Shown here piece by piece: positions 13,365 to 45,177 of a stretch of DNA of 53,267 nt. Made by a program: the position numbers and the translations under genes. Origin of the DNA: a virus (lineage: Duplodnaviria; Caudoviricetes); the IMG/VR virus record IMGVR_UViG_3300012665_000878, positions 1-53,267 of that record; one strand, 5' to 3'. Every line of letters begins with the position of its first letter. Position 1 is the first letter of the stretch. The notes below the pieces were generated by a model. The model did no database searches. It was not told the DNA's origin and was given only the letters and a program-made list of their open reading frames with translations.

Positions 13365-13579
13365 TGGCTAAAGAAGATATACTGGTAGTTGAAGGGCGAG
13401 TAGTAGAAGTTTTACCAGCTACTACTTTTAAAGTTGAGTTGGAAACTGGACAAAAAGTTCTAGCTCATCTAAGCGGCAAAATGCGTCAAAATAATATCAA
13501 GGTATTATTAGGCGATGGTGTTAAAATGGAGATGAGTGTTTATGACCTCTCTAAGGGAAGAATCGTTTTCAGAAAATGA
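13364..13579 (+). CDS. infA: translation initiation factor IF-1
   Basis: MAKED...[19 protein letters not shown]...[11 protein letters not shown] is canonical IF-1. Confidence 0.95.
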
Positions 13580-14201
13580 TATCATTGATCCTGATTGGGT
13601 CATTAGGTATCTGCTGAATCATCTTCCTAGAGAAAACATAAATGCCGAACTTACTATTAACACTATCAAAAAAATGTGTAAAAAAATCAAAGGCGTTCGC
13701 ATAGAATTTCAAAGAACTGGCGGCCTTAAAGATTGTTTTGCCATTCACGGGCTCTACGACAATACTAAAAAAAGAGCAATAATAATTACGATCTGTTGTA
13801 GTAGTTTTAAAAAACAATTTACACTATCTCCAAGTATCTACAACTATTTGATCTGCGAAGTAGCAGATACGCTTTGCCACGAAAGCATACATCGTTATCA
13901 AGATCTGGCTAGATACTATGATGGAAATGCTTCAAATAATCACGATGCCGATTATTATGCTGACCCGGACGAGATGTTTGCGTATGCTGTAAATATCGCA
14001 CACAATCTTTATCGAAAGCATGGGAATCAAGCGTTGTCAAATTTGAATAACATAGGATTAATAATCAACGACGACAGCTATCTTGCTGATTATTATTTCT
14101 TTATGTACAACACAACAAAATTTAATAAACTATTGAAAATGATTTATCAAAACTTAGAATCTTTTGAACAGGGCAAGATAGCACATCGGCCCTGCGTATG
14201 A
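13536..14201 (+). CDS. putative zinc metallopeptidase-like protein
   Basis: HESIH (HExxH) plus downstream EMFAYA. Confidence 0.55.
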
Positions 14202-15160
14202 CAATACCATTTGACGACATAACTTCTTTTGGGCAACAAACTATGTTAGACAGAAATGTGTTTAACATCAGTTGGATACTTGGTAGATTTTGTAACTATA
14301 ATTGTTCATACTGTTGGCCATATGCTCGCAGCGACAAATTAGATTATCAAGATCATTCAGTATATCTAAACGCAATTAATAATATTAAACAACAGGCTAG
14401 AGCAAATGGATTCAACGCATTCCATTGGAGCTTCAGTGGCGGCGAACCAACTGCCTATAAACAGTTGAACGACTTAATTAAACATCTAGACGAAACAGAA
14501 AGTACGTATCAAAGCATTCATATGACTACTAATCTAAGTCCAGGAAGCAAATGGTGGAATACTTGGTGTGCTAACACGGCCTTACTTCAACGAAGAAGTA
14601 TAACAGCCAGCTTTCATGATGAGTTTGCCAAGGAGCAAGAGTTTGGTGACAAGTGTTTACAGTTACAATACGAGCTGGTACATGTTACTATCAATCAAGT
14701 AATGGTTCCTGAAAAGTTTGATGAACTATATGAACGATGTCAGCGATTTAATGCTAAGGGCATTAATGTAACTCTTAAGCCACAGAGTAACGAAACAGCT
14801 TCCGAAATAGTAAAAGGTTACAGTGACAGCCAGATTGAACTTATGAAAACAGGTTTCCCTCAAAAAGTTAAAGATGAAGAAGTATACCAAATACGATTAA
14901 CTGATGGGTTACAGAATTATTTTTTAGATCAAGCAGAAAGATTTAATGCTTTTAATTTTAATAAATTTAACGGATGGCATTGTAACGCTGGACATCAAAG
15001 TTTAATCATTCGGGGCAATGAAGTTAAAAGAGGTTATAGCTGCCACGATACACCATTAGGTACATTATCCGATGGCTTTGAAATTTTTAAAACACCTACT
15101 AAATGCGTTACTCCTAGCTGTGTTAGTTCGGCAGATAGCAAGATACCAAAGAGAAAATAA
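14198..15160 (+). CDS. radical SAM protein
   Basis: CNYNCSYC, SGGEPT, C-terminal Cys cluster. Confidence 0.9.
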   Translation: MTIPFDDITSFGQQTMLDRNVFNISWILGRFCNYNCSYCWPYARSDKLDYQDHSVYLNAINNIKQQARANGFNAFHWSFSGGEPTAYKQLNDLIKHLDETESTYQSIHMTTNLSPGSKWWNTWCANTALLQRRSITASFHDEFAKEQEFGDKCLQLQYELVHVTINQVMVPEKFDELYERCQRFNAKGINVTLKPQSNETASEIVKGYSDSQIELMKTGFPQKVKDEEVYQIRLTDGLQNYFLDQAERFNAFNFNKFNGWHCNAGHQSLIIRGNEVKRGYSCHDTPLGTLSDGFEIFKTPTKCVTPSCVSSADSKIPKRK

Positions 15161-15975
15161 TGGAAACAGGAATAGTCAAATGGTATAATGATGCTAAAGG
15201 CTACGGCTTTGTTACTGCGGATCTCGATCGTGCTGAATTATTGATTCTTAAAGAACATATATTAAATGACCCTAAGGTTGTATTTGAATTACAGCCTGTT
15301 GAATTTGAAAGAGTGTTTTCTGTAGGTCGTCCGGTAGTTGCTGGAAAGATTCGTAGTACTATTACAGAAATAAAACATTATCAAAGACCTCGTATATCTG
15401 TTTTTGAAAATGTGTTGTCGCCAGACTTTTGTCGTGCTATAATTGAAAAACATACCGCAGCAGGTATGAACTCTAATTCTGGCGGACAATCTAGAACAGA
15501 GTCCTACGCACAAGTAACTGAACAAGTAGAAAATAGAGGCATAAGTCTAGGCGTCGATCCCTACGACTATGACATGATAGCAACAGCAATAACCAAGTAT
15601 GCTCGCGTACCATACAGTAACATAGAAGCCATAGATGTTTATAATTATGTAACCGGTCAGTTTTTAGATTTACATCACGACTATCCTTATGATCCAAAAC
15701 AAATACATTATTACAAGTACGGTGGTGATAGAGTAGGCACAGGAATCTTTTATTTCAATGACGACTTTGAAGGTGGCGAAACTTGGTTTCCTAAATTAGG
15801 TGTAGAGATAAAACCTAAAACAGGTTCCTTCTTGTATTTCGAGCAAGGCTACGACGAAGAAACAAATTGGAGTACGATCCATGAAAGTAAACTTATTACC
15901 AAAGGCACTAAATGGATAGCCAGTTGTTTTTTCAGTGATAAGCCAAGGGTGGGGTATGATCCTAGAAACTTCTAA
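15160..15975 (+). CDS. cold-shock domain fused to a prolyl-4-hydroxylase-like Fe(II)/2OG oxygenase
   Basis: GIVKWYNDAKGYGFV; HHD, YFNDDFEGGETWF, HES...GTKW. Confidence 0.8.
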   Translation: METGIVKWYNDAKGYGFVTADLDRAELLILKEHILNDPKVVFELQPVEFERVFSVGRPVVAGKIRSTITEIKHYQRPRISVFENVLSPDFCRAIIEKHTAAGMNSNSGGQSRTESYAQVTEQVENRGISLGVDPYDYDMIATAITKYARVPYSNIEAIDVYNYVTGQFLDLHHDYPYDPKQIHYYKYGGDRVGTGIFYFNDDFEGGETWFPKLGVEIKPKTGSFLYFEQGYDEETNWSTIHESKLITKGTKWIASCFFSDKPRVGYDPRNF

Positions 15976-16642
15976 TTGGACTCCCTATTACAAACTCAAT
16001 GAGCTAGGACAACGTGCTATGGCACAGCAGACCTACGAACCTCTTATTAGTCCAGATAAGAAAACATTCTGTGCTAACTATGCCTACAATAATGTTTATC
16101 AACATCGCAATGGTTATACCAAAGAAGTTGTAGATTGGTTTTTTGAAAACGAAATCAAACATTTTTTAAAATTTCAAAATCAACCTTGGTGCCCAGAAAT
16201 TGTTGATATTGATAGAACACGACTAAAAGTGTTTTTCAAATGGCAAGGCAATACCTGTAACGAAATCATCTACAGTGATCAGCAGTTAGAAAAATATTGC
16301 CCAAATTGGAAAAATCAGTTACAATATATAATGACTGACTGTTATGACCTAGGCACATATAAATTAACAATGTATCCGCATTGCCATTATATCCTTGATG
16401 GGCAACTCAAAACCTTTGACATGTATGGTTGCGTAGATACTGCTAGCCCATGGATACCTAAGTATGCTATGGATGGTATTGTACACGAGACAGCTAGATT
16501 TAGACTAGACGAAACTGACAGTAATGATACTCATTATAATTTAGAAAAGATGTTTAAACGTTCTATGAGTACACATGTCAAATGGGGCAACGAAGATCTT
16601 AATTGGCTTTACATTAAAATGTTTGGAACAGCAGATGCCTAA
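15956..16642 (+). CDS. hypothetical, kinase-like fold suspected
   Basis: FENEIKH, PEIVDID, YKLTMYPHCHYILDGQLKTFD; similar to 30853..31548. Confidence 0.5.
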   Translation: MILETSNWTPYYKLNELGQRAMAQQTYEPLISPDKKTFCANYAYNNVYQHRNGYTKEVVDWFFENEIKHFLKFQNQPWCPEIVDIDRTRLKVFFKWQGNTCNEIIYSDQQLEKYCPNWKNQLQYIMTDCYDLGTYKLTMYPHCHYILDGQLKTFDMYGCVDTASPWIPKYAMDGIVHETARFRLDETDSNDTHYNLEKMFKRSMSTHVKWGNEDLNWLYIKMFGTADA

Positions 16643-17207
16643 TCATATCGGAACAACTAAAGAAAAAATAGATTGGGATTTGGTGTTACAGTCTATTACT
16701 CCTAGAACAGGAGATCATAATACTGTAACTTCTGTGGTCAACAGATCCGAAGCAGAAGCAGTAGGCGATCAAGAATTATTAAGTTCTTACAGAGGCATTA
16801 TCAGCACTTGGGAAAAAGCAGGGTACGATCTTAGCAAAATTGAGTGGTGGGATTATTATCCCGGAGAACATTTTAGTATAGACATACAAACTAAATTTGC
16901 TAACATAGTTAACGCAGATCCTTTGCGTGTGTTTGTCAGCGAAGTTATGCCAGGCGCTTGTGTGCCGTATCATTGGGATGTTGAAGATAAAGAAGCAGAG
17001 TGGCTAGCACAAGGACCATTGGTTAGATATGTTTGTTTTATAGATAAGCCTAAGTTTGGTCACGTGCTAATGCTAGAGGATCAGTGCTTTTATAATATAC
17101 AACAACATGAACTCTATCAATGGGATAACTATCGTAGCCACCACGCAGGGACAAACTGTGGCAGCGAACCGTATTACCTTTTTCACTTTTTAGGAAGACC
17201 TAGATGA
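16635..17207 (+). CDS. Fe(II)/2OG oxygenase (AspH-like)
   Basis: PGACVPYHWD and HHAGTNCG. Confidence 0.7.
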   Translation: MPNHIGTTKEKIDWDLVLQSITPRTGDHNTVTSVVNRSEAEAVGDQELLSSYRGIISTWEKAGYDLSKIEWWDYYPGEHFSIDIQTKFANIVNADPLRVFVSEVMPGACVPYHWDVEDKEAEWLAQGPLVRYVCFIDKPKFGHVLMLEDQCFYNIQQHELYQWDNYRSHHAGTNCGSEPYYLFHFLGRPR

Positions 17208-17386
17208 ACGAAGAACCAGTTTTTACTGAGCCGTTTTATATAAAGAAGTTTATGGAGATACAACAACAGAATGTTATCTTATGGCGTAAGCTCTACAATA
17301 TACAACAAAACGCAGAATTGAAAGAACAAGTAGAAAACACATTTGGGGTAGACTTCTTTGATGAACTTGAAAGGGCCCCTAGATGA
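17204..17386 (+). CDS. 60-aa hypothetical protein
   Basis: ATGA overlaps at both ends. Confidence 0.6.
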   Translation: MNEEPVFTEPFYIKKFMEIQQQNVILWRKLYNIQQNAELKEQVENTFGVDFFDELERAPR

Positions 17387-18300
17387 AAATTTTATTAACT
17401 GGAAGCTCGGGGTTTATAGGTTCACACCTAACTCCGTTGTTAGAAAAAGAACACGAAGTACATCACTTAAAAAGCGACCTTACAGATCATAAAGCTGTAC
17501 AGTTAGAGGTAGTATCTGTATCTCCTGATATTATAGTTCACTTGGCAGCTAGAACCGAAGTAGAACAAAGTTTTTATGAACAGATAACTTTTAGTGAAAT
17601 TAACTATGTAGGCACAGTTAACTTAATAGAAGGTGCTGCTCGCGTAAAAAATTTAAAAAACTTTGTGTTTGCTAGTACTATGGAAGTATACGGCTGGCAA
17701 CCTATCAGTGACGATGTTAAAAATAATATTGTTCCTAAACAGTTTGTGGCGTTTGATGAAAACACACAACCAAATCCCAACGCACCCTACGCAGTGGCCA
17801 AGTACGGATGTGAAAAATATTTAGAGTACGCACATCGTTGTTTAAATCTTCCTTTTACTGCTATTCGACAGACTAATAGTTACGGACGCAAAGACAACAA
17901 GTTCTTTGTCACTGAGCAGATCATAAGCCAGATGTTAGAAAATCCCAAAGAAGTAGGATTTGGTTACGCAGAACCATACAGAAATTTTATCTACATCGAC
18001 GATCTATTAGATGCGTGGATGACAGTTATCAACAATCCCGATCTAGTCAATAACGGATATATCTTTACCATTGGACCAGATAATCCTATTAAGATTCGAG
18101 ATTACGCTCTAACCATAGCTAAAAAATTAAACTGGCAGGGCAATATAAATTGGGATACTAAGTTATTCAGACCGGGTGAAATATACTGGCTCAACAGTAA
18201 TCACAACTTAATTACTAAGGTAACAGGTTGGGCACCTAAAGTAACACTAGACGAGGGTCTAGATAAAACTATTGAAGTGTGGAAGAAAATTATAAAATGA
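17383..18300 (+). CDS. NAD-dependent nucleotide-sugar epimerase/dehydratase
   Basis: TGSSGFIG, HLAA and YAVAK (YxxxK). Confidence 0.9.
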   Translation: MKILLTGSSGFIGSHLTPLLEKEHEVHHLKSDLTDHKAVQLEVVSVSPDIIVHLAARTEVEQSFYEQITFSEINYVGTVNLIEGAARVKNLKNFVFASTMEVYGWQPISDDVKNNIVPKQFVAFDENTQPNPNAPYAVAKYGCEKYLEYAHRCLNLPFTAIRQTNSYGRKDNKFFVTEQIISQMLENPKEVGFGYAEPYRNFIYIDDLLDAWMTVINNPDLVNNGYIFTIGPDNPIKIRDYALTIAKKLNWQGNINWDTKLFRPGEIYWLNSNHNLITKVTGWAPKVTLDEGLDKTIEVWKKIIK

Positions 18301-18833
18301 TTAGGTACATTGGAAACTGTTCTTCTTTGATAAATTGGGATCTAGTAATTAAAGACCTAGAAGATCAGCAGCCCGCATATATTGGACCAAAACACAAACA
18401 GGGAGATCCAATACCAGAATTAACAGAAGTCACCGATCTGTGGAATCGTGCTGGGTATAAAACAGTTAAGGAAGGCGGTACTGTGGCTTGGGACATGTTC
18501 TTCCCAGGCGATAATTTTGATCCTAAACTGTTAGATAGATTTGCTGATTTTGTAGGAGCACCGGGATACACGACTGCTTGGATTAGTAGAATATGGCCAG
18601 GGCATTTTGCTCCACAACATTGGGATGTCAATGACAACGAATCAGCATTACCAGACATCCGTCGGTTTCATTGTCATATAGGTCATCCTGAGTTTGGTCA
18701 TGTTTTTATAGCAGACCAACAGTGTTTTTATAATCAAGCGCAAGGAGCTACTTACGAATGGTCAAGTAGAAAACTATGGCATGCTGGCACCAACTGCGGA
18801 CTAACTCCTAAGTATATTTTGAATTTTTGGTAA
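18297..18833 (+). CDS. Fe(II)/2OG oxygenase (AspH-like), paralog of 16635..17207
   Basis: PGHFAPQHWD and WHAGTNCG. Confidence 0.7.
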   Translation: MIRYIGNCSSLINWDLVIKDLEDQQPAYIGPKHKQGDPIPELTEVTDLWNRAGYKTVKEGGTVAWDMFFPGDNFDPKLLDRFADFVGAPGYTTAWISRIWPGHFAPQHWDVNDNESALPDIRRFHCHIGHPEFGHVFIADQQCFYNQAQGATYEWSSRKLWHAGTNCGLTPKYILNFW

Positions 18834-19828
18834 TGTATAAAATCACTGACCTACACATAGAACTAACAGACAAGTGTCAGGCTAGTTGTCCTATGTGTGC
18901 TAGAAACTATAACGGCGGAGCAGAGCGTGCCTTTGTGGGTCAACACGAAATTACGTTAGAACAATTTAAACAGTGGTTTGATACTTCGTGGCTTAAAGAA
19001 TTAAAAAACTTTTACGCCTGCGGTAATTATGGTGACCCTATTATTGCCAAAGACTGTTTAGAGATATTTGAATATGTGCGCAGAGTAAATCCTACAGCAC
19101 GGTTATCCATACACACCAACGGCAGTGCTAGGTCAGCAGATTGGTGGCAGTCACTGGCAAGATCAAAAGTAGAAGTTTCGTTTGGTATAGACGGGTTCGA
19201 AGATACTCATAAGCTATATCGTAGAAACACTAACTGGTCTAGAATCGTAGACAACATGGTAGACTTTATCCATGCTGGCGGTGTTGCTGTGGTTGATTGT
19301 TTGGTGTTTAAACACAATGAACATCAAGTAGCAGCTTTAGAAATATTCTTAAAGAAATTAGGCGTCAGTAAAATTAATTTTAAATATACAGGTCGTTTCT
19401 ATAACATGGAAAGTTTTCCTGTACAAGACACAGACGGAAATATAGAATACAGGTTAGAACCTAGCTCTATAAAAACAGTATCAAGAATTAATATCGACGA
19501 AATAATTAGGAGTCCCAAACAATGGACAAACAACGTAAGCATAGTCCCTAAGTGCGAACAGGGAAATGAAATTTATGTAGATGCTAGAGGAAATGTATTT
19601 CCTTGTTGTTGGGTAGGCAGCGATTGGATCGAAGAGTCTATTGAAGAAACTACAGAACTACGTAAATTAAGAAACACATTAGTCAGCGATACTAAAGAAA
19701 AATTTAAAGATGTCGGTATCGTTAATTTAGCAAATGTTAATATCAAAGACATAGAGTGGAGAAATTTGTCAGACCTGTGGGCTAGTCAAGATAAGCCGTG
19801 GGTATGCGCAAAGAACTGTAATGGATAA
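18827..19828 (+). CDS. radical SAM protein with C-terminal SPASM/twitch-like domain
   Basis: CQASCPMC, GNYGDP, GNVFPCC. Confidence 0.9.
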   Translation: MVMYKITDLHIELTDKCQASCPMCARNYNGGAERAFVGQHEITLEQFKQWFDTSWLKELKNFYACGNYGDPIIAKDCLEIFEYVRRVNPTARLSIHTNGSARSADWWQSLARSKVEVSFGIDGFEDTHKLYRRNTNWSRIVDNMVDFIHAGGVAVVDCLVFKHNEHQVAALEIFLKKLGVSKINFKYTGRFYNMESFPVQDTDGNIEYRLEPSSIKTVSRINIDEIIRSPKQWTNNVSIVPKCEQGNEIYVDARGNVFPCCWVGSDWIEESIEETTELRKLRNTLVSDTKEKFKDVGIVNLANVNIKDIEWRNLSDLWASQDKPWVCAKNCNG

Positions 19829-21224
19829 AATCAAATACTGGCAAGACAAGATTGAAAATTTAACTGGTAGTAAAACTTTCTGTGTGTTACCTTGGATACA
19901 TTTTGCCACAAGGCCTAATGGTGATATGCGACTTTGTTGTAACGCCAACAGCAGCGGAGCAGGTGTTGATCATGAAATAGGTCTAGTAAAAAACGAAACA
20001 GGCAGACCTGCTAATTTTGGTCGTGAAACTCCTATGAGTGCGTGGAACAACGACTATATGAAAGATGTGCGCTTAACTATGCTTGACGGCAAGATACCGG
20101 CCAGCTGTGTTAAATGTCATCAAGAAGAAAGTCGTGGAGTGGCCAGCAAACGTATATGGGAAACAGGTACATGGGTTGAAGAAGGCATAGACTTAGAAGA
20201 ACTAGTTAAACAAACTGAAGAAGATGGCATTGTCCCAGAACAGTTAGTTTACCTAGATCTTAGACTAGGGCATACCTGTAATCTAAAATGTATTATGTGT
20301 AGTCCACACGACAGCAGTCAATGGGTAGCAGATCACAAAAAAGTGTATCCCTTATTTCAAGCTAAAGAACTAAAAGAACAAATGGCATGGGGTCGTGAGG
20401 ACTTCAATAACTTTTGGCATGAAAATCCAGACTTCTGGAAAGAGATGTACGCACAGATTCCTAATCTAAAACAGGTCTACTTTGCCGGCGGCGAACCGTT
20501 AATGATCAAAGAACATAAATTGTTCTTAGAAGAAATTATACGTCAGGGATATGCTGATAAAATCTTAGTTAGATACAACACCAACGGTCTACTCATAGAC
20601 GACGAAATAATTGATCTTTGGTCTAAGTTTAGATTAGTTAAAGTTGGAGTAAGCATAGACGCAGTAGGTGAACGCAATCGTTATATACGTTTTCCTACAG
20701 AGTGGGACGTAGTGGTAAAAAATCTACACAAGCTCGACAAAGCACCACCCAACATACAGGCCAGTATTGCCACAGCCATACAGATTCTAAACATCAAACA
20801 CTTACCAGATCTTGCCAAGTGGAAAGTGCGTGAAGGTTTTAAGAAAATTAATTTTGAAAATGTCACAGGTGGCATACAAGCAGGCGGTGGGTTGTTTAAC
20901 ATGCACTTGCTGTACATACCTACATTCTTAAGCATCAAAGCGTTACCTGAAGAAGATAAAGCAGAAGTAAGAGAAAACTTTGCCATGCTGGCAAATTGGT
21001 TATATATTAACTACAGGCAAGACGAAGATTTTTGGAAAGACAATCCTTACGGGTGGCAGCGTTGGCAAGCAATTTTAAAATTCATGGACAGCGAAGATCA
21101 CACACATTTATTGCCAGCATTCCGCGAATACATAGAACGTATGGAAACTCTTAGAGGAACAGATTTTAAATCTACGTTTCCTGAACTGGAACATTTAATA
21201 AATGAAAAAAATAATTTATACTAA
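19821..21224 (+). CDS. radical SAM protein with N-terminal twitch-like domain
   Basis: FCVLPW...LCC...CVKC, CNLKCIMC, AGGEP. Confidence 0.9.
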   Translation: MDKIKYWQDKIENLTGSKTFCVLPWIHFATRPNGDMRLCCNANSSGAGVDHEIGLVKNETGRPANFGRETPMSAWNNDYMKDVRLTMLDGKIPASCVKCHQEESRGVASKRIWETGTWVEEGIDLEELVKQTEEDGIVPEQLVYLDLRLGHTCNLKCIMCSPHDSSQWVADHKKVYPLFQAKELKEQMAWGREDFNNFWHENPDFWKEMYAQIPNLKQVYFAGGEPLMIKEHKLFLEEIIRQGYADKILVRYNTNGLLIDDEIIDLWSKFRLVKVGVSIDAVGERNRYIRFPTEWDVVVKNLHKLDKAPPNIQASIATAIQILNIKHLPDLAKWKVREGFKKINFENVTGGIQAGGGLFNMHLLYIPTFLSIKALPEEDKAEVRENFAMLANWLYINYRQDEDFWKDNPYGWQRWQAILKFMDSEDHTHLLPAFREYIERMETLRGTDFKSTFPELEHLINEKNNLY

Positions 21225-27679: not shown

Positions 27680-27718
27680 GATATATTTAAGCTAGTTATA
27701 GTAGCACATAAATATTTC

Positions 27719-31548: not shown

Positions 31549-31574
31549 ATCGTATATAGCGAATAAGTAGTTGT

Positions 31575-37095: not shown

Positions 37096-37134
37096 ACTTG
37101 TAGTTATATTAAAACAGCGCAGATAACTATAAGT

Positions 37135-38019
37135 ATGAATCGAACTCACGTTGACTTAATTTCTTTTTATATTACAAATGTATGCGGGCTAGCTTGCCCA
37201 GGCTGTGCCAGCTATAATAATTACGTTCTAAAAGGTCATTATAATTGGAACGATGCTAAAGATCGCACATACAAATGGGGCGAATTAATCGATGTAGGCC
37301 AGATTACCATAATTGGCGGCGAACCACTGTTACATCCAGATATCAATAATTGGGTGCTAGGAGTTAGGGATAGTTTTAAGCATGTTTCAGACCTAAGAAT
37401 ACTCACAGGGTTGACTGGATCTAAATTAACAAGATTTAAAAAAGAAATATTAACATGGTTAGAACATCGTGTTATAATACAAATTAGTGTACATGATGCT
37501 CGTTGGTGGGACGATGCTAAGGATGCTGCTAGAGATATTCTCAAAGACACAGACTTTACAGAAGTCGAAGTTGTAGACGGAGGCAACTTTCCATTTAAGC
37601 GCATAGACTATAAATCTGCCGATGGAACAATGTTGATGTGTATCCTAGAACAATGGGAATTTTTTCCTATTGCTCAAAAAGAAATCAAAGACGGAATTAT
37701 ACATTTTCATAACAATGATCCGGAAGAAGCACATAAAGCATGTAACTGTAAAGACTGCCATTATATTATAGATGGTATTATGTACAAGTGTGTTCTTACA
37801 GGGATATCAAAAATGTTAATAGATCAAGTGCCGTTAGATCAAAGATCCATAGAGGTGTTGAAAGAATCAACCGGGCTAGATCCATTCGTCGATGGATACA
37901 AATTAACTATACAAAACTCAGTAGCACAGTGTTCTTTATGTCCAACAAAGGGCATGGATAAATTAATACCCATATGGCCAGTGCCTATTAAAAAACCAAG
38001 GTTCGATAATGTCAACTGA
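37135..38019 (+). CDS. radical SAM protein
   Basis: CGLACPGC, IGGEPLLHP, MYKC...CSLCP. Confidence 0.9.
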   Translation: MNRTHVDLISFYITNVCGLACPGCASYNNYVLKGHYNWNDAKDRTYKWGELIDVGQITIIGGEPLLHPDINNWVLGVRDSFKHVSDLRILTGLTGSKLTRFKKEILTWLEHRVIIQISVHDARWWDDAKDAARDILKDTDFTEVEVVDGGNFPFKRIDYKSADGTMLMCILEQWEFFPIAQKEIKDGIIHFHNNDPEEAHKACNCKDCHYIIDGIMYKCVLTGISKMLIDQVPLDQRSIEVLKESTGLDPFVDGYKLTIQNSVAQCSLCPTKGMDKLIPIWPVPIKKPRFDNVN

Positions 38020-38923
38020 TAAACGTCATTTAAAATTTGGAAATTCATTTGCTATCCGCGATTCTGATACACTGGCTGTATTAAATGAATCATTACATAA
38101 TACACATGATATTTTAGATAACACAAACATAGTCGATCAATTCTGTAATGAGTACCTCGCATGGATCAACAGCGGAACGAAAAATACTTTTATTGGTCTT
38201 GATACATTCGAGTACAAGTGTTATTCTAACGGTACTACAGAATCCTTTGACAAATTCTACATGAAAAATCATGCTAGAAGATTTAGATGCTTTAAAGGCG
38301 AATATATGTATCATCAACTTGCCTGGAGGAATCATTGGCCCAATTGGAAGTTTATTGAAGATGAAAAACTCGCAGCTAATGATGCTGTTGTAATTTCTAT
38401 ACCATTTGCCGATACTGGCAATCAACACAAAGATTATAAGACAATTTTAAAACAGTGCGATAAATTAGGAATACCCGTGTTAGTCGACTGTGCTTATTAT
38501 GGAATATGCCAAGGAATAGAATTTGATCTTTCTCATAAATCAATCACAGATGTTGTATTCAGTCTATCAAAAACGTTTCCGGTAGCACACGCTAGAATTG
38601 GCATGCGATTAACAAGAACCGACGACGATGATCCACTGTTTGTAGTAAACAAAAACGGCTACGTTAATCGTATCGGAGCACACATTGGCTCTAAGTTTTT
38701 GTCATTGTTCAGTCCTGATTTCCTTCCAGAGAGATACAGAAGCAAACAAGAAACATTTTGCGAACACTTAGGTGTTGAAATTAGTTCAACTATCTTGTTT
38801 GGCATTGGCGGAGAAAGTTGGCAAGAATATAATCGAGGTAGTGAAACAAATCGGTTAAGTTTTCACAAATATATACATCAAGACATTGATATTTTTATTA
38901 AAGATAATCCTAAAAATGTATAA
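38009..38923 (+). CDS. PLP-dependent transferase (aminotransferase/decarboxylase-like)
   Basis: VLVDCAY and FSLSKTF...RIG fold-type I motifs. Confidence 0.75.
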   Translation: MSTDKRHLKFGNSFAIRDSDTLAVLNESLHNTHDILDNTNIVDQFCNEYLAWINSGTKNTFIGLDTFEYKCYSNGTTESFDKFYMKNHARRFRCFKGEYMYHQLAWRNHWPNWKFIEDEKLAANDAVVISIPFADTGNQHKDYKTILKQCDKLGIPVLVDCAYYGICQGIEFDLSHKSITDVVFSLSKTFPVAHARIGMRLTRTDDDDPLFVVNKNGYVNRIGAHIGSKFLSLFSPDFLPERYRSKQETFCEHLGVEISSTILFGIGGESWQEYNRGSETNRLSFHKYIHQDIDIFIKDNPKNV

Positions 38924-40106
38924 AGGTAAAATAGTAAACTTTGAACTACTATATGTAGACGGCGAATTCATTGACGACGAGAGTCTAGCCAATGTTACAT
39001 ACAACATGGTCATGGCAGACATTGTTCGTGCCGCAGATCAAGGGTTTGATGTTATTGTTGGTCTACTGTTAATGGACGGATTTTTATACAAAGACAACGA
39101 AATATTTTATAGAAATTTAAAACGCATTCAAAAACAAGCATTCAAGTTTGGTATTAAAAAGATAATGTTAGTCACTGGTATGTGTGAAGACTTTCAACAT
39201 CATCTTGCCAGCAAAGGCCTTAATTATGAAATTGTGTTTTTTGATTTTACACATCATATGGTTTATCAAAGCTATTTGGGCAAAGAAGATCTATTGCCCG
39301 ATTGGAATTATAAGTCTAAAAAGTTTTTGTTTCTTGGCGGAGTTCCAAGTCGAGGTAATAGAATCAATCTCTTAAGCAAATTCTATGACAAGAAATTACT
39401 AGACCACGCAGAGTGGAGTTTTTTTAGACCCTGGACTACCGAAGATCAATGGTGGTGTCGTGCTGCGTTAGATCGGTATACCGACGAACAATATGAACAA
39501 TTTTTAAATGACTGTGATCGTGCTGTTGATAATCGATATCAAGAAGCAAAAAATTACTCTAGACTACCAGGCAAAGATCTAAAAGAAACCAATATACATG
39601 ATACAGACTGGTGTAAAGATCCAAGTTGGATCGATCCGGCAGTATTTGATAACACACTGTTTAGTGTTATTTCCGAAGGCAACGCATATCCACCTGCCAC
39701 TGATTTTAGATTTTTAACTGAAAAGACATGGCGAACAGTTATTATGAAACACCCATTTGTATTTGCTGGAGAACCCGAACAGTTTCATTACGCTAAAAGT
39801 AAAGGGCTAAAAACATTTGAAAATTATATGCTGATCGATGACTATGCGGATATAACCTATGAAGATCATAGGCTCGATGCTGTGGTTAAAAACACTGAAA
39901 AATTTTTAATCGATGCTGAAAATAACATAGATCAAATACAGCAAGACATTGAACATAATTTTCAAATATTCCTAGACGTTGCCAAATATAATCAATCATT
40001 GTTAGATCATTTACAGAATGACTACAATGTAGACCTCGACGAGATTGAAAGATGGTTTAACCATAAAAGTTTTGTTCACTTGATAAGGATCGCCAATGGA
40101 AACTAA
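38916..40106 (+). CDS. hypothetical protein, glycosyltransferase-like C-terminus
   Basis: SVISE...FLTEKTWR...HPF; weak. Confidence 0.45.
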   Translation: MYKGKIVNFELLYVDGEFIDDESLANVTYNMVMADIVRAADQGFDVIVGLLLMDGFLYKDNEIFYRNLKRIQKQAFKFGIKKIMLVTGMCEDFQHHLASKGLNYEIVFFDFTHHMVYQSYLGKEDLLPDWNYKSKKFLFLGGVPSRGNRINLLSKFYDKKLLDHAEWSFFRPWTTEDQWWCRAALDRYTDEQYEQFLNDCDRAVDNRYQEAKNYSRLPGKDLKETNIHDTDWCKDPSWIDPAVFDNTLFSVISEGNAYPPATDFRFLTEKTWRTVIMKHPFVFAGEPEQFHYAKSKGLKTFENYMLIDDYADITYEDHRLDAVVKNTEKFLIDAENNIDQIQQDIEHNFQIFLDVAKYNQSLLDHLQNDYNVDLDEIERWFNHKSFVHLIRIANGN

Positions 40107-41028
40107 GTGCGCAGCATTTTGGCATCACACCAATATCAGAAGTGATAACCGTGTATTTCCCTGCTGCCGATTTAAAGATCCTGTAGACACTTTCAATGGC
40201 GATACCCGCACTATTTTGTTTTCTGATTCTTACGAAAATTTAAGAGAACAAAGCAATAACAATGTACCAATTGTTGGCTGCGAAAAATGTTATCACGAAG
40301 AACAACTAGGAAAAGAAAGTCTAAGACAAAAATTCAACAAAGATTACGATACAGAAACTGTAAGTTTAGAATTTTTAGAAATTGGTTTTGATAACATCTG
40401 TAATTTAACCTGTGATGGGTGTTGGGCAGAGTTTAGTTCTGCTTGGAGCATTAAGTTAAATCCAAATGCTCCTAAAAATTCTCACGTTAGAAGCATCGAA
40501 GATATCACCAGTCTCCCGTCAACAATTAATAAAATTTTGTTTTTAGGTGGCGAACCGTTAATGACCAATAGACACTACAGATTGTTAAAGCTAGTCGTCA
40601 ACCCAAGTGTCACTGACGTTGTTTATAATACCAACGGAACGTTTATGTTAGACATTAAAACCATTGAACTACTAAAAACATTTAGATCTGTAGAATTTAT
40701 AGTAAGCATAGACGGGTTTGGTGAGTTGAACGAGAAGGTACGAAGCGGCTCGATATGGTCAGATATCATTGAGTTTTTAACTCAATTACAATTACACAAT
40801 TTTAAAATCACAATACATACTGTGATACACAAAAACAATTGGCATGGGTTAGGCGATCTAGACAAGTTTGTAAAACAACTTAATGTAAACTGGACTACTA
40901 ATGTTCTTACCTATCCTAAACAGCTTGATATTGTCAATATTGACGACAAGGAATCTTGTATAGCATTTATGAAAACTATAGAATTTCCAAACAAGGATTA
41001 TACAATAAATCATGTCCTACATAGTTGA
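40096..41028 (+). CDS. radical SAM protein with N-terminal twitch-like domain
   Basis: PCC...CEKC, CNLTCDGC, LGGEP. Confidence 0.9.
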   Translation: METKCAAFWHHTNIRSDNRVFPCCRFKDPVDTFNGDTRTILFSDSYENLREQSNNNVPIVGCEKCYHEEQLGKESLRQKFNKDYDTETVSLEFLEIGFDNICNLTCDGCWAEFSSAWSIKLNPNAPKNSHVRSIEDITSLPSTINKILFLGGEPLMTNRHYRLLKLVVNPSVTDVVYNTNGTFMLDIKTIELLKTFRSVEFIVSIDGFGELNEKVRSGSIWSDIIEFLTQLQLHNFKITIHTVIHKNNWHGLGDLDKFVKQLNVNWTTNVLTYPKQLDIVNIDDKESCIAFMKTIEFPNKDYTINHVLHS

Positions 41029-41608
41029 TCCAAGCACATATGTTAACCCTCAACTGTTTGACGATCTAACAGAAATCTTGTCACCTATTATAGTTGCTGA
41101 ACGTAGTAATTTAGAACCTTACTTGTTTAATATTGCGGAAACTGATTCAGTAGGTGACCTTACCGGAGTTCATCCTAGATATAGAGATAATGTAGCAGCG
41201 TTTGCCGGACTGATGTATGACGGTACTCCGGAAAATATTAACAGTTATTTCAAAGAAAAATTTAAACCAGCAATTGAAAAAATTGAATCAATGCCAGGTA
41301 TTGTTCTTTCAGTGTTATTTTTTATTGCTCCAAACTCAATAGTTCCAACACATATCCACGACATGGACCGTCCAGCATACGATAATACTGACTATTATAA
41401 TATATTTTTAGGACTATATGTTCCATCGACAGATGTTGAAATACTAGGAGCAAAAATAGATAACGAAATACATAGTCATGCCAAGGGCAAAGCCTTTGTG
41501 TTTGATTCTCAAGTTCCTCATTCGGCTTGGAATAATACCAACGAATGGTGGCTATCAATTTTAATGTACATAAAAAAGGATTGTTTTAATGAAAATATCA
41601 AGTCATAA
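41012..41608 (+). CDS. Fe(II)/2OG oxygenase (AspH-like)
   Basis: PNSIVPTHIHD and FDSQVPHSAWN. Confidence 0.75.
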   Translation: MSYIVDPSTYVNPQLFDDLTEILSPIIVAERSNLEPYLFNIAETDSVGDLTGVHPRYRDNVAAFAGLMYDGTPENINSYFKEKFKPAIEKIESMPGIVLSVLFFIAPNSIVPTHIHDMDRPAYDNTDYYNIFLGLYVPSTDVEILGAKIDNEIHSHAKGKAFVFDSQVPHSAWNNTNEWWLSILMYIKKDCFNENIKS

Positions 41609-42644
41609 CCATTGGGATCCATTGGAAGAAATCGTAGTTGGTATCGCAGATCATGCTAGGGTGCCAACTGTAGATCGCAGTACAATGAGCATGAGCTATA
41701 CCAATCATCCTATGGAGTTGATTAAACCTTTAGAAGGTGCGTATCCTCAATGGTTAATCGATGAAGCCAACGAAGATATGAACGAACTAGCAGATATGTT
41801 AAAGAAACTAGGTGTAAAAGTTCATAGACCTAAGCCTGTAAATCACAGCGTTGAATTTAGTACCCCTGAATGGAAAACCTCGGGATGGTACACTTGGTGT
41901 CCTAGAGATCTTTTACTGCCATTAGACAATTTAATGATAGAAACACCCAGTGCTTGCCGTGCTAGATATTTTGAAACTAGAGCCTATAGAGACATAATGA
42001 TGTCTGCTATCAATGATGGCACAGAATGGATCGCTGCTCCTAAGCCTATATTGCCAGATGAGAGTTATCAGTTTGAAGACATTGACGGTAAACCTAGTCT
42101 AACTAATTTAGAACCAGTGTTTGATGCGCCTAACTGTGTTAGAATGGGCAAGGACATATTGTTTCAAATCAGCAATACTGGTAATCATTGGGGACTACAG
42201 TGGCTTAAAAATGTATTAGAGCCTAGAGGTTATAGAATACATCCAGCAGAACACATTTACAGTTACGGTCATTTTGACAGTACAATCATTCCTTTACGTG
42301 CTGGACTAGTTTTGTTAAACAGCAGCAGAGTCACTCCTGAGAATTGTCCTAAGATTTTTGAGAAGTGGGACAAGATTTGGTTTGATGACTGTGTGGTACA
42401 AGGAAGTAAAGTCCCAGGCGGTGTTGCTCCTTGTAGTCCATACATAGGAATGAACATCCTAAGTGTCAATCCTAATACTATTGTCTGCGATAGCACACAA
42501 GAACCTCTGATGAAAGAATTAAACAAGCATGGCATTGACAGCATACCCGTTCGCTTTAGACATGCTATGACATTGAGTGGCGGCATCCATTGCGCTACAT
42601 TAGATCTTAGACGCAAAGGAACATTAGAAGATTATTTTTCATGA
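41589..42644 (+). CDS. amidinotransferase (glycine or inosamine-phosphate amidinotransferase family)
   Basis: WDPLEEIVVG, CPRD, FDAPN, HFDST and GGIHCATLD. Confidence 0.9.
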   Translation: MKISSHNHWDPLEEIVVGIADHARVPTVDRSTMSMSYTNHPMELIKPLEGAYPQWLIDEANEDMNELADMLKKLGVKVHRPKPVNHSVEFSTPEWKTSGWYTWCPRDLLLPLDNLMIETPSACRARYFETRAYRDIMMSAINDGTEWIAAPKPILPDESYQFEDIDGKPSLTNLEPVFDAPNCVRMGKDILFQISNTGNHWGLQWLKNVLEPRGYRIHPAEHIYSYGHFDSTIIPLRAGLVLLNSSRVTPENCPKIFEKWDKIWFDDCVVQGSKVPGGVAPCSPYIGMNILSVNPNTIVCDSTQEPLMKELNKHGIDSIPVRFRHAMTLSGGIHCATLDLRRKGTLEDYFS

Positions 42645-43126
42645 TTAGATATCACGGTAACCTAAAAGATTTTTGGTCAGAGGAATTGATTTCGTATCAA
42701 TTTCCTCACAGATCTCCTACAGGCCAACGTGATTATTTTCATGACAACTACAGTAGACACACTAATGACCTACTACAAGGGTTCGATCAAGAACTTCCTA
42801 GCTGTAGGCAACAGTTTTTTAAAGAATTAAATGTATCTGTAGGAGCAATATCTTGGACCTGTGTTGAACCAGGACAAACGATTCCAGTTCATACAGATGG
42901 ATTTTATAAACTTAGAACGCAGCACAACGTAGATGTTGCCGACTGTGTACGATATCTTATTTTCTTACAAGATTGGACACTAGGTCATTTGGTAGAATTT
43001 CAAGAACAAGTAATAACAAAATGGCAAAAGGGCGATGTGTGGGTTTTTGATCACGAATCAGCACACTGCGCAGCCAACGCAAGTAATCTAAATTTTGTCA
43101 CTTGCCAAGTAAACACAATTAAATAA
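42641..43126 (+). CDS. Fe(II)/2OG oxygenase (AspH-like)
   Basis: PGQTIPVHTD and AHCAANA. Confidence 0.7.
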   Translation: MIRYHGNLKDFWSEELISYQFPHRSPTGQRDYFHDNYSRHTNDLLQGFDQELPSCRQQFFKELNVSVGAISWTCVEPGQTIPVHTDGFYKLRTQHNVDVADCVRYLIFLQDWTLGHLVEFQEQVITKWQKGDVWVFDHESAHCAANASNLNFVTCQVNTIK

Positions 43127-43141
43127 CAAAAAGGAACAACA

Positions 43142-44269
43142 ATGACAACACTAACACCAATACAAGAACACTGGGATAACAAAACCCTAAATTATGACCT
43201 AGAAAAATACAACTGGCCTGCCTGGGCACTGTCTGTAGTACAGGAAGTAGCACCTCAAGTAAAGGAATTAGAAACACTACACGAAGTGTTAACCCCTGCT
43301 GAGATTGTTCGAGTAAGTCAGCATGTTCAAAATGCCTGTTCACGCAGAGACTTTATGGAACTATTTGACGAATTTGCTCAGAGCATTGTTCCACAAAGAA
43401 TAGATAACAAGCGATATATGATCCAAAGACAGGGCACCTTGCGTGTAGTAATCCCGCAACAGGCTAAAGTAGGGCGCAGACTAGCGTTTCATCAAGGAAT
43501 CTTTGTTGGCAACGGCCGCGGATGCCGTACAATTTGGACTCCGTTTACTGAAGCTAAAGGCACAAACACTATGTGGATGATGGATTTAGAAATATCTAGA
43601 GAAATTACCAAACGTGTTCTAGAAGAAAAATGGAGTTTAGATCGTTTCGAAGATGAATGTTTGAAACACGCTTGGCCTGTAACACTGAAACCTGGACAGA
43701 GTCATTTGTTCTTCCAAGAACATATCCACGGCAATGTCAACAACGAAGAAGGGTATACTCGTGTTAGCATGGACATGCGCATTCTTATCGAAGGCGAGGA
43801 GTGGGGACGTAGATTGCCAGGCGGATTTATGCGCTTGCCAGGCGACTATGAAGTAACACAAACTGGCGATTACACTGGTAAGAGCTTTATCACATACGCT
43901 GGTTGGAACTCTAAGTTCTCTAAAGACATTCCTTTACCAATGCAACGTGCTATCATAGAACCATATTGCGCAAAAAACAAAATCAGTTACAATAGTTATG
44001 AGTTTGAAAACGAACATATGGATTGGCAACCCGGGTTAGAACATTATATCAAAGAACGTCCAGACGGAATCGTGTTGTGTAGTATGTACTGTCTGACCGA
44101 TGATGTACAACGTCGAAGCGAACTGTTACAATTAGCATTGGATCTCGGTGTTGAATTACACTTTGCTAACGAATTGTGTTCTTTGAAATCAAAAAACGAT
44201 TTAGAAAAAATTGAAACCTATCTAAACTTTGCTGTTTCTAAAAAAGGCGCATACGTTTGGGAAGAATAA
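43142..44269 (+). CDS. StrG-like oxygenase fused to a carbohydrate-cluster-associated domain
   Basis: TIWTPFT, HGNVNN...TRVSMDMR; C-terminal PMQRAIIEPYC...GIVLCSMYCL...LHFANE recalled as LIC12192/TIGR04323-like (unverified). Confidence 0.55.
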   Translation: MTTLTPIQEHWDNKTLNYDLEKYNWPAWALSVVQEVAPQVKELETLHEVLTPAEIVRVSQHVQNACSRRDFMELFDEFAQSIVPQRIDNKRYMIQRQGTLRVVIPQQAKVGRRLAFHQGIFVGNGRGCRTIWTPFTEAKGTNTMWMMDLEISREITKRVLEEKWSLDRFEDECLKHAWPVTLKPGQSHLFFQEHIHGNVNNEEGYTRVSMDMRILIEGEEWGRRLPGGFMRLPGDYEVTQTGDYTGKSFITYAGWNSKFSKDIPLPMQRAIIEPYCAKNKISYNSYEFENEHMDWQPGLEHYIKERPDGIVLCSMYCLTDDVQRRSELLQLALDLGVELHFANELCSLKSKNDLEKIETYLNFAVSKKGAYVWEE

Positions 44270-45150: not shown

Positions 45151-45177
45151 AGATAAATAGCTAAAAGGATACCAATC

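Follow-up and report, generated by a model that had tools for sequence, protein, structure and literature searches.

Modules of several radical S-adenosylmethionine (SAM) genes and arrays of dioxygenase genes in phages are already in print, and the available texts assign no product to them (PMC2853527, PMC7029224, PMC2938197, PMC3037559). The Campylobacter phages CP220 and CPt10 hold 11-12 radical SAM genes per genome with a putative amidinotransferase per cluster, for which the available text proposes a metabolic benefit at low oxygen and not a tailoring pathway (Timms et al. 2010, PMC2853527). For pelagimyophages, radical SAM cassettes have been noted and O-chain modification has been proposed for the host recognition cluster, which in pelagimyophages and cyanomyophages is defined by its position between VrlC and gp14 and by tail fibres (Zaragoza-Solas et al. 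2020, PMC7029224). Marine T4-like phages carry tandem arrays of many unrelated Fe(II)/2-oxoglutarate (Fe/2OG) and PhyH-type dioxygenases, 10 of them in Syn9, and the accessible parts of the reports know no product for them (Iyer et al. 2010, PMC2938197; Sullivan et al. 2010, PMC3037559). Here we describe a 30 kb island of enzyme genes at positions 14198-44269 of a virus sequence (Caudoviricetes), in which radical SAM and Fe/2OG oxygenase genes occur together. The window, i.e. the whole stretch analysed, is the complete IMG/VR virus record IMGVR_UViG_3300012665_000878; it is linear, has 53,267 bases and represents a genome estimated by CheckV to be 14% complete. Searches of the literature (without supplements) found no functional study of such an island.

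The island emerges from our analysis as a conserved set of soluble tailoring enzymes, arranged like an operon, that is found in a clade of T4-like jumbo phages of ~360 kb. As a putative sugar-type tailoring cluster it has an unprecedented density of radical SAM genes. In our judgement the chances are about even that the island is a cytoplasmic pathway in which an unusual amino/guanidino sugar-type unit is built, edited and passed on to an acceptor in the infected cell. The unit would be an amino/guanidino deoxy-sugar or an aminocyclitol-like compound. A first-pass annotation, made from the letters of the window alone, had proposed a modification system and had called its substrate unidentifiable from the window. 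The modification system holds, and the evidence now narrows the options toward glycan or sugar-type chemistry. The narrowing is due to a StrB1-type amidinotransferase (g34), a GT-B-fold protein (g31), a short-chain dehydrogenase/reductase (SDR) of the nucleoside diphosphate (NDP)-sugar type (g06), a relative of carbohydrate cluster families (g36) and the glycosyltransferase-rich neighbourhoods of homologues in cultured phages and in Bdellovibrionota.

Results

Architecture of the island

Open reading frames (ORFs) were numbered g01 to g36 over 13536-44269, and all 36 were scanned. The island comprises the 35 ORFs from the start of g02 (14198) to the stop of g36 (44269); 12 of them, about one third, are Radical_SAM genes. 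The genes are nearly gapless and fall into seven strand blocks. Most neighbours overlap by a few bases, and a single intergenic gap (17207-17383) exceeds 40 bp. By hydropathy, 34 of the 36 proteins have no transmembrane-like segment, and only two marginal peaks were seen. The genes of the island are listed below with position, strand and class.

g02, 14198..15160, + strand: radical SAM with C-terminal Cys-rich part; member of the g02-g08-g09 trio
g03, 15160..15975, + strand: cold-shock domain fused to an Fe/2OG oxygenase of the prolyl 4-hydroxylase (P4H) type
g04, 15935..16642, + strand: no class; paralogue of g22; weak kinase-fold signal
g05, 16575..17207, + strand: cupin-type oxygenase, Asp/Asn hydroxylase-like group
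g06, 17383..18300, + strand: extended SDR, NDP-sugar epimerase/4,6-dehydratase type
g07, 18279..18833, + strand: cupin-type oxygenase
g08, 18827..19828, + strand: radical SAM; trio member
g09, 19821..21224, + strand: N_Twi radical SAM (N-terminal twitch-type domain); trio member
g10, 21202..21978, + strand: possible SGNH-type hydrolase, motifs only
g11, 21962..23092, - strand: divergent radical SAM with N-terminal SPASM/twitch-like domain
g12, 23085..24188, - strand: radical SAM, g02/g12/g13 group
g13, 24181..25086, - strand: radical SAM, g02/g12/g13 group
g14, 25076..25681, - strand: possible cupin, motif only
g15, 25678..26973, - strand: N_Twi radical SAM
g16, 26918..27679, - strand: PP-loop ATP pyrophosphatase-like
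g17, 27719..28387, + strand: cupin-type oxygenase
g18 and g19, 28380-28823 and 28820-29407, + strand: two short SDR-like paralogues
g20, 29381..29932, - strand: no class; kept in all three relatives compared (G001, G002, G003)
g21, 29925..30923, - strand: radical SAM with C-terminal Cys-rich part
g22, 30853..31548, - strand: no class; paralogue of g04; weak kinase-fold signal
g23, 31575..32390, + strand: predicted Fe/2OG oxygenase fold; no Pfam family
g24, 32390..33541, + strand: N_Twi radical SAM
g25, 33538..34032, + strand: cupin-type oxygenase
g26, 34025..35197, + strand: N_Twi radical SAM
g27, 35166..36368, - strand: 400 amino acids (aa), 11 Cys; no class
g28, 36340..37149, - strand: cupin-type oxygenase
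g29, 37135..38019, + strand: divergent radical SAM
g30, 38009..38923, + strand: pyridoxal 5'-phosphate (PLP)-dependent enzyme, aminotransferase class I/II type
g31, 38886..40106, + strand: predicted GT-B glycosyltransferase-fold protein; no Pfam family
g32, 40096..41028, + strand: N_Twi radical SAM
g33, 41012..41608, + strand: cupin-type oxygenase with HxHD instead of HxD
g34, 41589..42644, + strand: StrB1-type amidinotransferase
g35, 42641..43126, + strand: cupin-type oxygenase
g36, 43142..44269, + strand: PhyH-like Fe/2OG enzyme with HxG instead of HxD, fused to an LIC12192-type domain; candidate halogenase

The gene counts of the first-pass annotation, 12 radical SAM and about 11 oxygenase genes, agree with ours: Pfam Radical_SAM matches 12 of the 36 scanned proteins, and ten oxygenases are supported (g03, g05, g07, g17, g23, g25, g28, g33, g35, g36) with g14 as a possible further one. 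Its epimerase (g06), two short SDRs (g18, g19), PLP enzyme (g30), amidinotransferase (g34) and PP-loop enzyme (g16) likewise find support in hidden Markov model (HMM), BLAST or motif evidence. The SGNH enzyme also listed there has the end motifs expected of it in g10 (N-terminal NGCSFTSG, C-terminal SEDAH) but no HMM match in Pfam, and g10 has no best-hit orthologue in G001, G002 or G003. The genes do not map to a characterised cofactor pathway, as no curated cofactor-pathway cutoff is passed, and catalytic motifs are kept. PHROGs returned nothing for 13 island proteins, and a megablast of 20 kb of island DNA against deposited phages gave no match.

A repeated alternation of the two enzyme classes, as suggested by the first-pass annotation, is not supported by our data. 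Seven radical SAM/oxygenase neighbour pairs were counted, compared to 6.85 expected (P = 0.57, 100,000 shuffles of gene order). The radical SAM and oxygenase genes are mixed, not paired. The paradox that had been seen in oxygen-sensitive enzymes alternating with oxygen-dependent ones is weak: the two classes are paired no more often than by chance, and a shared cytoplasm for radical SAM enzymes and oxygenases is routine in aerobic cells.

Conservation in related phages

Relatives of g09 were found on 25 viral contigs, in 23 of which the identity to g09 is 69-96%. Among them are two genomes that CheckV rates 100% complete, G001 (363,943 bases) and G002 (357,559 bases), and a T4-type Gp23 capsid gene is present in both. 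Judged by these relatives, the window is a fragment of a T4-like jumbo phage of ~360 kb. The clustering of radical SAM genes goes beyond chance, because all five relatives searched contain 10-13 Radical_SAM matches, for the most part packed into 20-45 kb, compared to a g09-like protein in only 4 of 50,697 deposited phage records.

By BLASTP, the order of the island genes is preserved in G001 and in another relative, G003, with some genes gained or lost. No best-hit orthologue is found in G001 for g10, g11, g21, g29, g32, g33 and g35. The core kept in G002 consists of g02, g04, g07, g08, g09, g13, g15, g16, g17, g20, g22, g23 and g28, and G002 adds seven further distant N_Twi-like paralogues. 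Three tandem 276-aa paralogues without a counterpart in the window lie in the G002 island at 177717-180197 (L027 7717-10197); two of the three have faint GDSL-lipase matches (E 0.02 and 0.09). The earlier idea of a combinatorial system is not supported: gene content differs among relatives, but the island is no more divergent than its surroundings. Compared with G001, identity ranges over 49-96% for the island and 56-93% for its flanks, which is similar, and the island was rejected as a special hotspot of divergence.

Two further candidate links were tried and rejected. The transfer RNA (tRNA) array adjoins the island in the window and in G001, lies ~9 kb away in G003 and is absent from the 60 kb around the G002 island, i.e. 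its link to the island is not conserved. A general link to fibre genes fails as well: the distance between the island and an Mtd_N gene is no more than ~9 kb in G002, G003 and G004 but 38 kb or more in G001 and G005. For the island of G001, Mtd_N genes are at least 41 kb and gp23 ~146 kb distant. No fibre-type gene was found in the window.

Comparison with described phage clusters

Homologues of g34 occur in 16 deposited phage records. In Synechococcus phage S-SCSM2R the homologue belongs to a stretch of five glycosyltransferase genes, a single radical SAM gene, a gene of putative aminotransferase type and 2OG oxygenase genes. In CP220 its neighbours are five radical SAM genes, a PAP2 phosphatase gene and two genes resembling NDP-sugar transferases. 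The amidinotransferase of CP220 shows 31% identity to g34 across 97% of its length, but in the 25 kb region of CP220 matches were found for only 3 of the 36 island proteins, and that region holds no oxygenase array. A search for a cultured phage that carries the island gave only partial overlap: the regions compared of RsoM2USA, Vibrio K566, CP220 and S-SCSM2R share 3, 6, 3 and 4 of the 36 proteins, respectively. The Syn9-type arrays differ in that the accessible texts on them report no radical SAM gene and discuss halogenases of the flavin (tryptophan halogenase) type.

The first ORF of the window (3-1805) encodes a CHASE2 sensor fused to an adenylate/guanylate cyclase, with 46% identity to a protein of Methylophilales phage Melnitz and 34% to one of Pelagibacter phage HTVC008M. 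This shared flanking gene is a likeness to the phages with a pelagimyophage-type host recognition cluster, and the lack of a fibre gene in the window is a difference.

Gene neighbourhoods in bacteria

A g09-orthologue scan of species-representative genomes yielded 78 bacterial loci, mostly from Bdellovibrionota, where the nearest cellular homologues of g09 occur (44-49% identity), several of them on megabase contigs. The two best bacterial g09 matches (65%) come from short contigs (3.5 and 4.9 kb), which may represent phage DNA that was binned together with cells. The trio g02 + g08 + g09 is found in 39 of the 78 loci, again mostly Bdellovibrionota, at 34-55% identity (g02 44-55%) and with extra N_Twi paralogues. 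In a cultured Bdellovibrio (L064) the trio is interleaved with six GT2 genes and a GNAT gene (Pfam), and on one Bacteriovoracaceae chromosome 10 radical SAM genes adjoin GT2 and PMT_2 genes. A custom GT2 profile matched in 24 of the 78 loci, and an S74-like query strongly in 3 and weakly in 2.

At 17248-21315 of L064, a 1,355-aa protein with a C-terminal Peptidase_S74 (endosialidase chaperone) domain adjoins the radical SAM/GT2 block. The Peptidase_S74 domain is typical of phage tail fibres and spikes.

The trio and the extra N_Twi genes are common to the Bdellovibrionota loci and the island, whereas GT2 genes are present there and absent from the phage clade. Conversely, the 78 loci have no matches to g20, g22, g23, g27, g31 and g36, and cupin-type genes are rare in them (g28-like in 5 loci, g17- and g05-like in 1).

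Radical SAM enzymes

All 12 radical SAM proteins contain exactly one CxxxCxxC. The Pfam Radical_SAM (PF04055) gathering cutoff of 29.5 bits is exceeded by nine of them, including g02 (39.9 bits), g08 (45.1), g12 (45.3), g13 (48.2) and g21 (35.4); g11 (17.2), g24 (28.0) and g29 (23.0) stay below. GGE/GD motifs had been claimed for all 12, of which GGE is present in 10, while g08 has no exact GGE. Representative core motifs are CNYNCSYC at residue 32 of g02 (GGE at 81), CQASCPMC at residue 17 of g08, CNLSCLYC at residue 34 of g21 and CGLACPGC at residue 17 of g29 (GGE at 61; G003 orthologue 53% identical). The paralogues g12 and g13 match each other at BLAST E 6e-22, and g24 and g26 are 38% identical. 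Orthologues of g13 in G001, G002 and G003 are 58-80% identical, those of g15 68-81%.

The proteins fall into two layouts. Six (g09, g11, g15, g24, g26, g32) have 4-6 Cys N-terminal of the core motif; the remaining six (g02, g08, g12, g13, g21, g29) have 7-10 Cys C-terminal of it, e.g. 7 in g02, 8 in g08 and 9 in g21. Pfam SPASM-like matches lie at the N-terminus of g09, g11, g15 and g32; in g11 the SPASM match (38.3 bits) covers residues 5-69, ahead of CNLQCPSC at residue 142. An auxiliary Cys domain at the N-terminus had been pointed out as unusual by the first-pass annotation. The domain is there in six proteins, but it is not new: NF033640 (N_Twi_rSAM, twitch domain-containing radical SAM protein) is a curated family defined by it. 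Five proteins pass the curated cutoff of 170 bits: g09 (406), g15 (317.4), g26 (220), g24 (198.5, despite its low Pfam score) and g32 (194.2). In contrast, g11 shares the layout but reaches only 57.6 bits, and g08 scores 53.9. The phage island holds this family as 5-6 paralogues together. In an alignment of 12 N_Twi paralogues from the window and G002, C21, C39, C96, C99, the core CX3CX2C and GGEP are invariant. The four conserved N-terminal Cys fit a domain that holds a single auxiliary cluster, i.e. one of twitch type rather than SPASM.

Many sub-threshold NCBIfam matches of the island radical SAM proteins are SPASM/twitch peptide maturases. All scores for maturase equivalogs fall far short of their cutoffs, the best being that of g21 for HxsC (32.3 bits, cutoff 267.9). 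Scores for the HXS system (HxsB/HxsC, TIGR03978/TIGR03977) thus stay below cutoff, with g08 at 18.4 bits compared to 370. No precursor of a ribosomally synthesised and post-translationally modified peptide was found in the form of a Cys-His-x-Ser repeat or an RGRR-tail protein in the window, and the island has no space for an unannotated precursor gene because it has just one intergenic gap above 40 bp. A viperin-like role in defence or anti-defence was considered and rejected: the best score is 47.5 bits for g13 (cutoff 180), and the PADLOC pVip matches span the N-terminal core only.

Oxygenases

The island oxygenases keep the HxD...H triad of the Fe(II)/2OG/cupin superfamily; g33, g36 and g14 deviate from it or are placed by motif only. 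The fusion protein g03 matches CSD (27.9 bits) and 2OG-FeII_Oxy_3 (37.8 bits, above the Pfam cutoff) and has the motif H172-H-D. Its G001 orthologue has the same length (271 aa) and is 86% identical, while the G003 orthologue (200 aa) aligns over 189 residues at 43%, i.e. over the oxygenase part only.

In the cupin group, the Asp_Arg_Hydrox cutoff of Pfam (22.6 bits) is passed by g28 (31.6) and g33 (33.1) and narrowly missed by g17 (22.1), g25 (20.9) and g35 (19.9). By BLAST, g05 matches g07 (E 6e-31) and g25 (E 4e-9), g07 is a paralogue of both, and g35 matches g25 (E 5e-12). Metal-site motifs are HWD + HxxxN in g05 and g07, HAD + HxxxN in g17 and HTD + HxxxN in g25; g33 has THIHD, i.e. HxHD where the others have HxD. 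H94, D96, H145 and N149 are invariant in an alignment of 11 cupin-group sequences. The possible member g14 shares H86-I-D and H170-xxx-N174 with its G001 homologue; hhalign against the cupin profile gave no significant match, so the motif is its support. Weak matches of g25 and g33 to LpxO and OlsC are far below the cutoffs (18.7 vs 500 and 29.3 vs 450 bits).

With 94% identity to G001, 77% to G002 and 70% to G003, g23 is among the most conserved genes of the island (in G001, g36 also has 94% and g09 96%). It has 973 homologue clusters, and none of the 120 proteins listed bears a Pfam domain or an informative name. A PDB search gave nothing usable, and tblastn against deposited phages gave no match. 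An AlphaFold (AF2) model with a predicted local distance difference test (pLDDT) score of 85.7 matches PHD2 and proline hydroxylases in Foldseek with E 2e-5 and probability 1.0, at a template modelling (TM) score of only 0.35-0.42. H178, D180, H237 and R250 are invariant in 25 sequences. On the strength of the model, g23 is predicted to be an undescribed Fe/2OG oxygenase family.

The candidate halogenase g36

The last gene of the island is related to TIGR04324 (68.1 bits, cutoff 150) and TIGR04323 (46.6 bits, cutoff 55), which are Haft's 'sporadic carbohydrate cluster' families. Both scores are below cutoff. Of 26 g36 homologues scanned, none reaches 150 bits for TIGR04324 and two reach 55 bits for TIGR04323. 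By these scores g36 is placed as a sister group of the two families and not as a member. Some members of the g36 family are labelled PhyH-like by some sources. An exhaustive search returned 341 proteins at E up to 0.001, and g36 was aligned with 37 full-length representatives (38 sequences). In this alignment H117, H196 and R207 are invariant and S209 nearly so, but position 119 is Asp in 22 and Gly in 16 sequences, including g36 (H117-Q-G119 ... H196 ... R207-x-S209). The segment FHQGIFVGNG is identical in the G001 and G003 orthologues.

Fe/2OG halogenases are recognised by a two-His site in which Gly or Ala stands where other members have the carboxylate ligand. Because HxG replaces HxD at its metal site, g36 may be an Fe/2OG halogenase. 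With SyrB2, WelO5, BesD and AdeV it shares the two-His motif with Gly at the carboxylate position, its sister sequences having HxD. The likeness is one of motif alone, and g36 differs from these enzymes by its LIC12192-type domain fusion.

Amidinotransferase, GT-B fold and further enzymes

The amidinotransferase assignment of g34 is clear. The protein matches the inosamine-phosphate amidinotransferase StrB1 (PDB 1bwd) over its full length (residues 3-349, E 1.4e-96, 326.8 bits), and its GGIHCATLD aligns with GGFHCATLD of StrB1, i.e. the active-site Cys motif is kept. Matches to SxtG, HsvA and glycine amidinotransferase are lower (197-218 bits). The island differs from the streptomycin pathway in that no other streptomycin-specific gene was recognised in it. 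From its homology, g34 predicts a guanidino group on the product.

No Pfam or PDB sequence or profile match was found for g31, which has 234 homologue clusters with no Pfam domain among the 120 listed. Its AF2 model (pLDDT 92.3) was compared by two structural aligners. Foldseek returned almost exclusively GT-B glycosyltransferases, albeit weakly (E from 1.5e-3, TM score up to 0.44). In VIA-align, run against 48,161 chains, the top 50 are nearly all GT-B (Z 8.4-11.6, 229-286 residues aligned). An Atlas lead to GT10 (score <0.9) agrees loosely with the predicted fold. At the level of the fold, we read g31 as a GT-B protein.

The extended SDR g06 matches Pfam Epimerase (130.8 bits) and GDP_Man_Dehyd (132.9 bits) and contains GSSGFIG and YAVAK; LegB (121.6) and RmlB (105.5) remain under their equivalog cutoffs. 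The short SDRs g18 and g19 are similar to each other (BLAST E 6e-21), have the Gly motif and YxxxK, and score 22.2 bits for adh_short, below the cutoff. For g30, Aminotran_1_2 scores 24.1 bits (cutoff 19.7) with SLSK at residue 185; a PDB sequence search was uninformative. The PP-loop protein g16 (orthologues 51-92% identical) has SGGADS at residue 25, an ATP_bind_3 score of 19.3 bits, below the cutoff, and TilS as best weak match, and a PDB search gave nothing usable.

Four proteins stay without a class. The paralogues g04 and g22 match each other at BLAST E 9e-14 (g22 orthologues 59-74%), and 24 of 25 matches in a PDB profile search with their family are kinase or Bud32 folds with a best E of only 0.014; the kinase fold is a lead only. 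For g20 (54-81% identity in relatives) the PDB profile search found nothing, and only a faint GNAT match (E 0.12) was seen. The g27 family is large (749 homologue clusters, no Pfam domain among 120 listed); PDB sequence and profile searches gave nothing, hhalign of g27 against g31 was negative, and the Atlas lead HtrL_YibB scores only 0.81 and is unconfirmed. Loose Pfam searches (E up to 0.5) with the unclassed proteins and their orthologues gave only faint matches.

Genes flanking the island

Upstream, the minus strand carries a fatty acid desaturase-like gene (1931-2680) adjoining a BPL_N-like gene (2655-3389), and eight small overlapping plus-strand ORFs of 80-144 aa without a Pfam match lie at 6195-8527. 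A ClpP-type protease gene (12792-13364) is immediately upstream of the island. Directly upstream of g02 and overlapping it, g01 (13536-14201, 221 aa) has a HESIH motif (HExxH-like) and a faint SprT-like match (E 0.02).

Downstream, 31 tRNA genes for all 20 amino acids were found on the plus strand at 45062-51323, with three tRNA-Met and duplicates for Ala, Gly, Asn, Arg, Leu and Ser; the corresponding array in G001 has 28 tRNAs. A permuted transfer-messenger RNA (Rfam RF04321) at 51182-51803 overlaps tRNA-Ala and tRNA-Gly and is marginal with 47.5 bits (gathering cutoff 47). An AhpC/TSA peroxiredoxin gene (52700-53257) lies close to the window end; that it guards the Fe-S enzymes is speculation.

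Discussion

The enzyme classes, intact motifs, island conservation and homologue neighbourhoods can be read directly from the genes, and from these we infer every step of the following pathway. The NDP-sugar-type SDR g06 and the short SDRs g18 and g19 would form keto or deoxy intermediates. The PLP enzyme g30 would add an amine, which the StrB1-type g34 would turn into a guanidine. The 12 radical SAM enzymes would each take a hydrogen from a particular unactivated carbon, leading to epimerisation, oxidation, dehydration or a C-C bond, with the single auxiliary cluster of the twitch domain handling the electron. Further positions would be hydroxylated by the 10-11 Fe/2OG enzymes, and g36 may halogenate. 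Finally, the GT-B-fold g31 would transfer the unit. The acceptor, the least certain step, may be a cytoplasmic macromolecule such as a virion fibre protein; it is probably cytoplasmic because the island encodes no membrane protein.

Several observations weigh against this pathway. No nucleotidyltransferase or sugar-1-phosphate activating enzyme was recognised in the island, and the only glycosyltransferase evidence in the clade is the g31 fold match of moderate strength (Foldseek E 1.5e-3, TM score 0.44; Z 11.6). The GT2 profile matches neither the window nor any of 34 viral loci of the clade; 54 of the 78 bacterial loci lack a GT2 match within the flanks examined, and two (L069 and L060) of the four scanned with Pfam have no glycosyltransferase. 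A fibre-type gene is near the island in only three of the five phages compared, as detailed above. Asp/Asn beta-hydroxylase-like oxygenases, the commonest kind here, and P4H-like oxygenases are best known for acting on proteins and lipids. Likewise, SPASM/twitch radical SAM enzymes are best known as peptide maturases, and the many sub-threshold NCBIfam matches agree with this. We know of no N_Twi_rSAM member with an assigned reaction; the family carries a curated name only.

Part of this evidence is what a protein-directed scenario would predict, in which radical SAM enzymes cross-link or epimerise and oxygenases hydroxylate the side chains of a phage structural protein such as a fibre, with sugars playing a minor part or none. 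The maturase-like matches, seven Asp/Asn hydroxylase-like oxygenases and the P4H-like g03 would fit, and so would fibre-type genes as neighbours of the island (G002, G003) and an S74 fibre-like gene as neighbour of the trio, seen in 3 of the 78 bacterial loci with two more matching weakly. Tail-collar and collagen-like proteins are predicted hydroxylation substrates in some bacterial operons (Iyer et al. 2010, PMC2938197). Such chemistry would leave g34, g06 and g31 unexplained, however, and neither a precursor-like protein in the window, nor room for an additional precursor gene in the island, nor a score near a maturase cutoff speaks for it; we consider it unlikely. Remodelling of the host envelope (lipopolysaccharide or capsule sugars, lipid A) during infection, blocking superinfection, would preserve the sugar but move the acceptor. 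It has a precedent in the O-chain modification proposed for the glycosyltransferases of pelagimyophage host recognition clusters, in which radical SAM cassettes are noted (Zaragoza-Solas et al. 2020, PMC7029224), and the PAP2 phosphatase beside the CP220 cluster and the weak LpxO and OlsC matches of g25 and g33 point the same way. Yet these scores are far below their cutoffs, and no flippase, polymerase, polyprenyl-phosphate transferase or other membrane protein was found in the island. An undecaprenyl-linked envelope pathway is unlikely because 34 of the 36 proteins lack a transmembrane-like segment, and we regard an envelope role as highly improbable.

The same enzymes might also serve a product that is never attached to a macromolecule. 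A free small molecule of aminoglycoside or aminocyclitol type, made during infection, released at lysis and directed against competitors or grazers or acting as a signal, would make sense of an all-soluble protein set whose classes are those of streptomycin-type pathways: the StrB1-type amidinotransferase, an NDP-hexose dehydratase-type SDR, a PLP enzyme, a GT-B fold, a faint kinase-fold pair and twitch radical SAM enzymes. Secondary-metabolite roles have been suggested for phage dioxygenase arrays (Iyer et al. 2010, PMC2938197). However, neither a cyclitol synthase nor an exporter nor a gene for self-resistance could be recognised among the island genes, and the bacterial homologues sit amid GT2, PMT_2 and fibre-like genes, which argues for decoration of a macromolecule. 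As we also know of no free metabolite made by a lytic phage, this scenario seems quite doubtful to us. Slightly more doubtful still is hypermodification of nucleic acids, either of the phage DNA bases or of the phage's own tRNAs. Among the leading structural matches of g31 are the alpha- and beta-glucosyltransferases with which T4 modifies DNA (Z 11.2 and 10.8) and a glycosyltransferase of phage HY126 (Z 10.2), but the T4 enzymes are tied with many other GT-B folds. Similarly, g03 bears a cold-shock nucleic-acid-binding domain, but the G003 orthologue aligns to the oxygenase part alone; and the array of 31 tRNAs directly follows the island here and in G001, but this adjacency is not kept in G003 and G002. 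The PP-loop protein g16 with its weak TilS match would suit tRNA, and kinase, PLP and radical SAM enzymes occur in known thymidine hypermodification pathways. We know of no DNA or tRNA modification pathway that needs so many enzymes, and the bacterial contexts are of glycan type.

Conclusions

Our results favour a pathway for an amino/guanidino sugar-type unit. New here are the fold calls for g23 and g31, the count of the trio in bacterial loci and the HxG subgroup of the g36 family, as well as the negative tests on alternation, tRNA linkage, fibre linkage and precursor peptides. Taken to its furthest extent, the N-terminal-twitch paralogues would be site-selective editors of sugar C-H bonds that act together with a StrB1-type amidinotransferase and the first carbohydrate-directed Fe/2OG halogenase, giving T4-like jumbo phages and Bdellovibrionota a guanidinylated, halogenated and multiply epimerised sugar coat on their host- or prey-recognition fibres. 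We consider this extended version a long shot.

Giant aquatic phages of a widespread group devote about 10% of their coding capacity to enzymes with a product that has never been observed. The island contains large uncharted families (973 sequence clusters for g23, 749 for g27), and it provides the N_Twi radical SAM family with a usable context, namely a StrB1-type amidinotransferase, a GT-B-fold transferase and a candidate Fe/2OG halogenase. The predicted guanidino group is searchable by mass spectrometry, and the radical SAM core of three genes is present in a cultured Bdellovibrio, where it adjoins genes for glycosyltransferases and for a fibre-like protein. Should the radical SAM paralogues turn out to be position-specific sugar editors, they would constitute a new enzyme toolbox. 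If the product decorates recognition fibres, it would bear on how giant phages and predatory bacteria recognise their targets or evade recognition.

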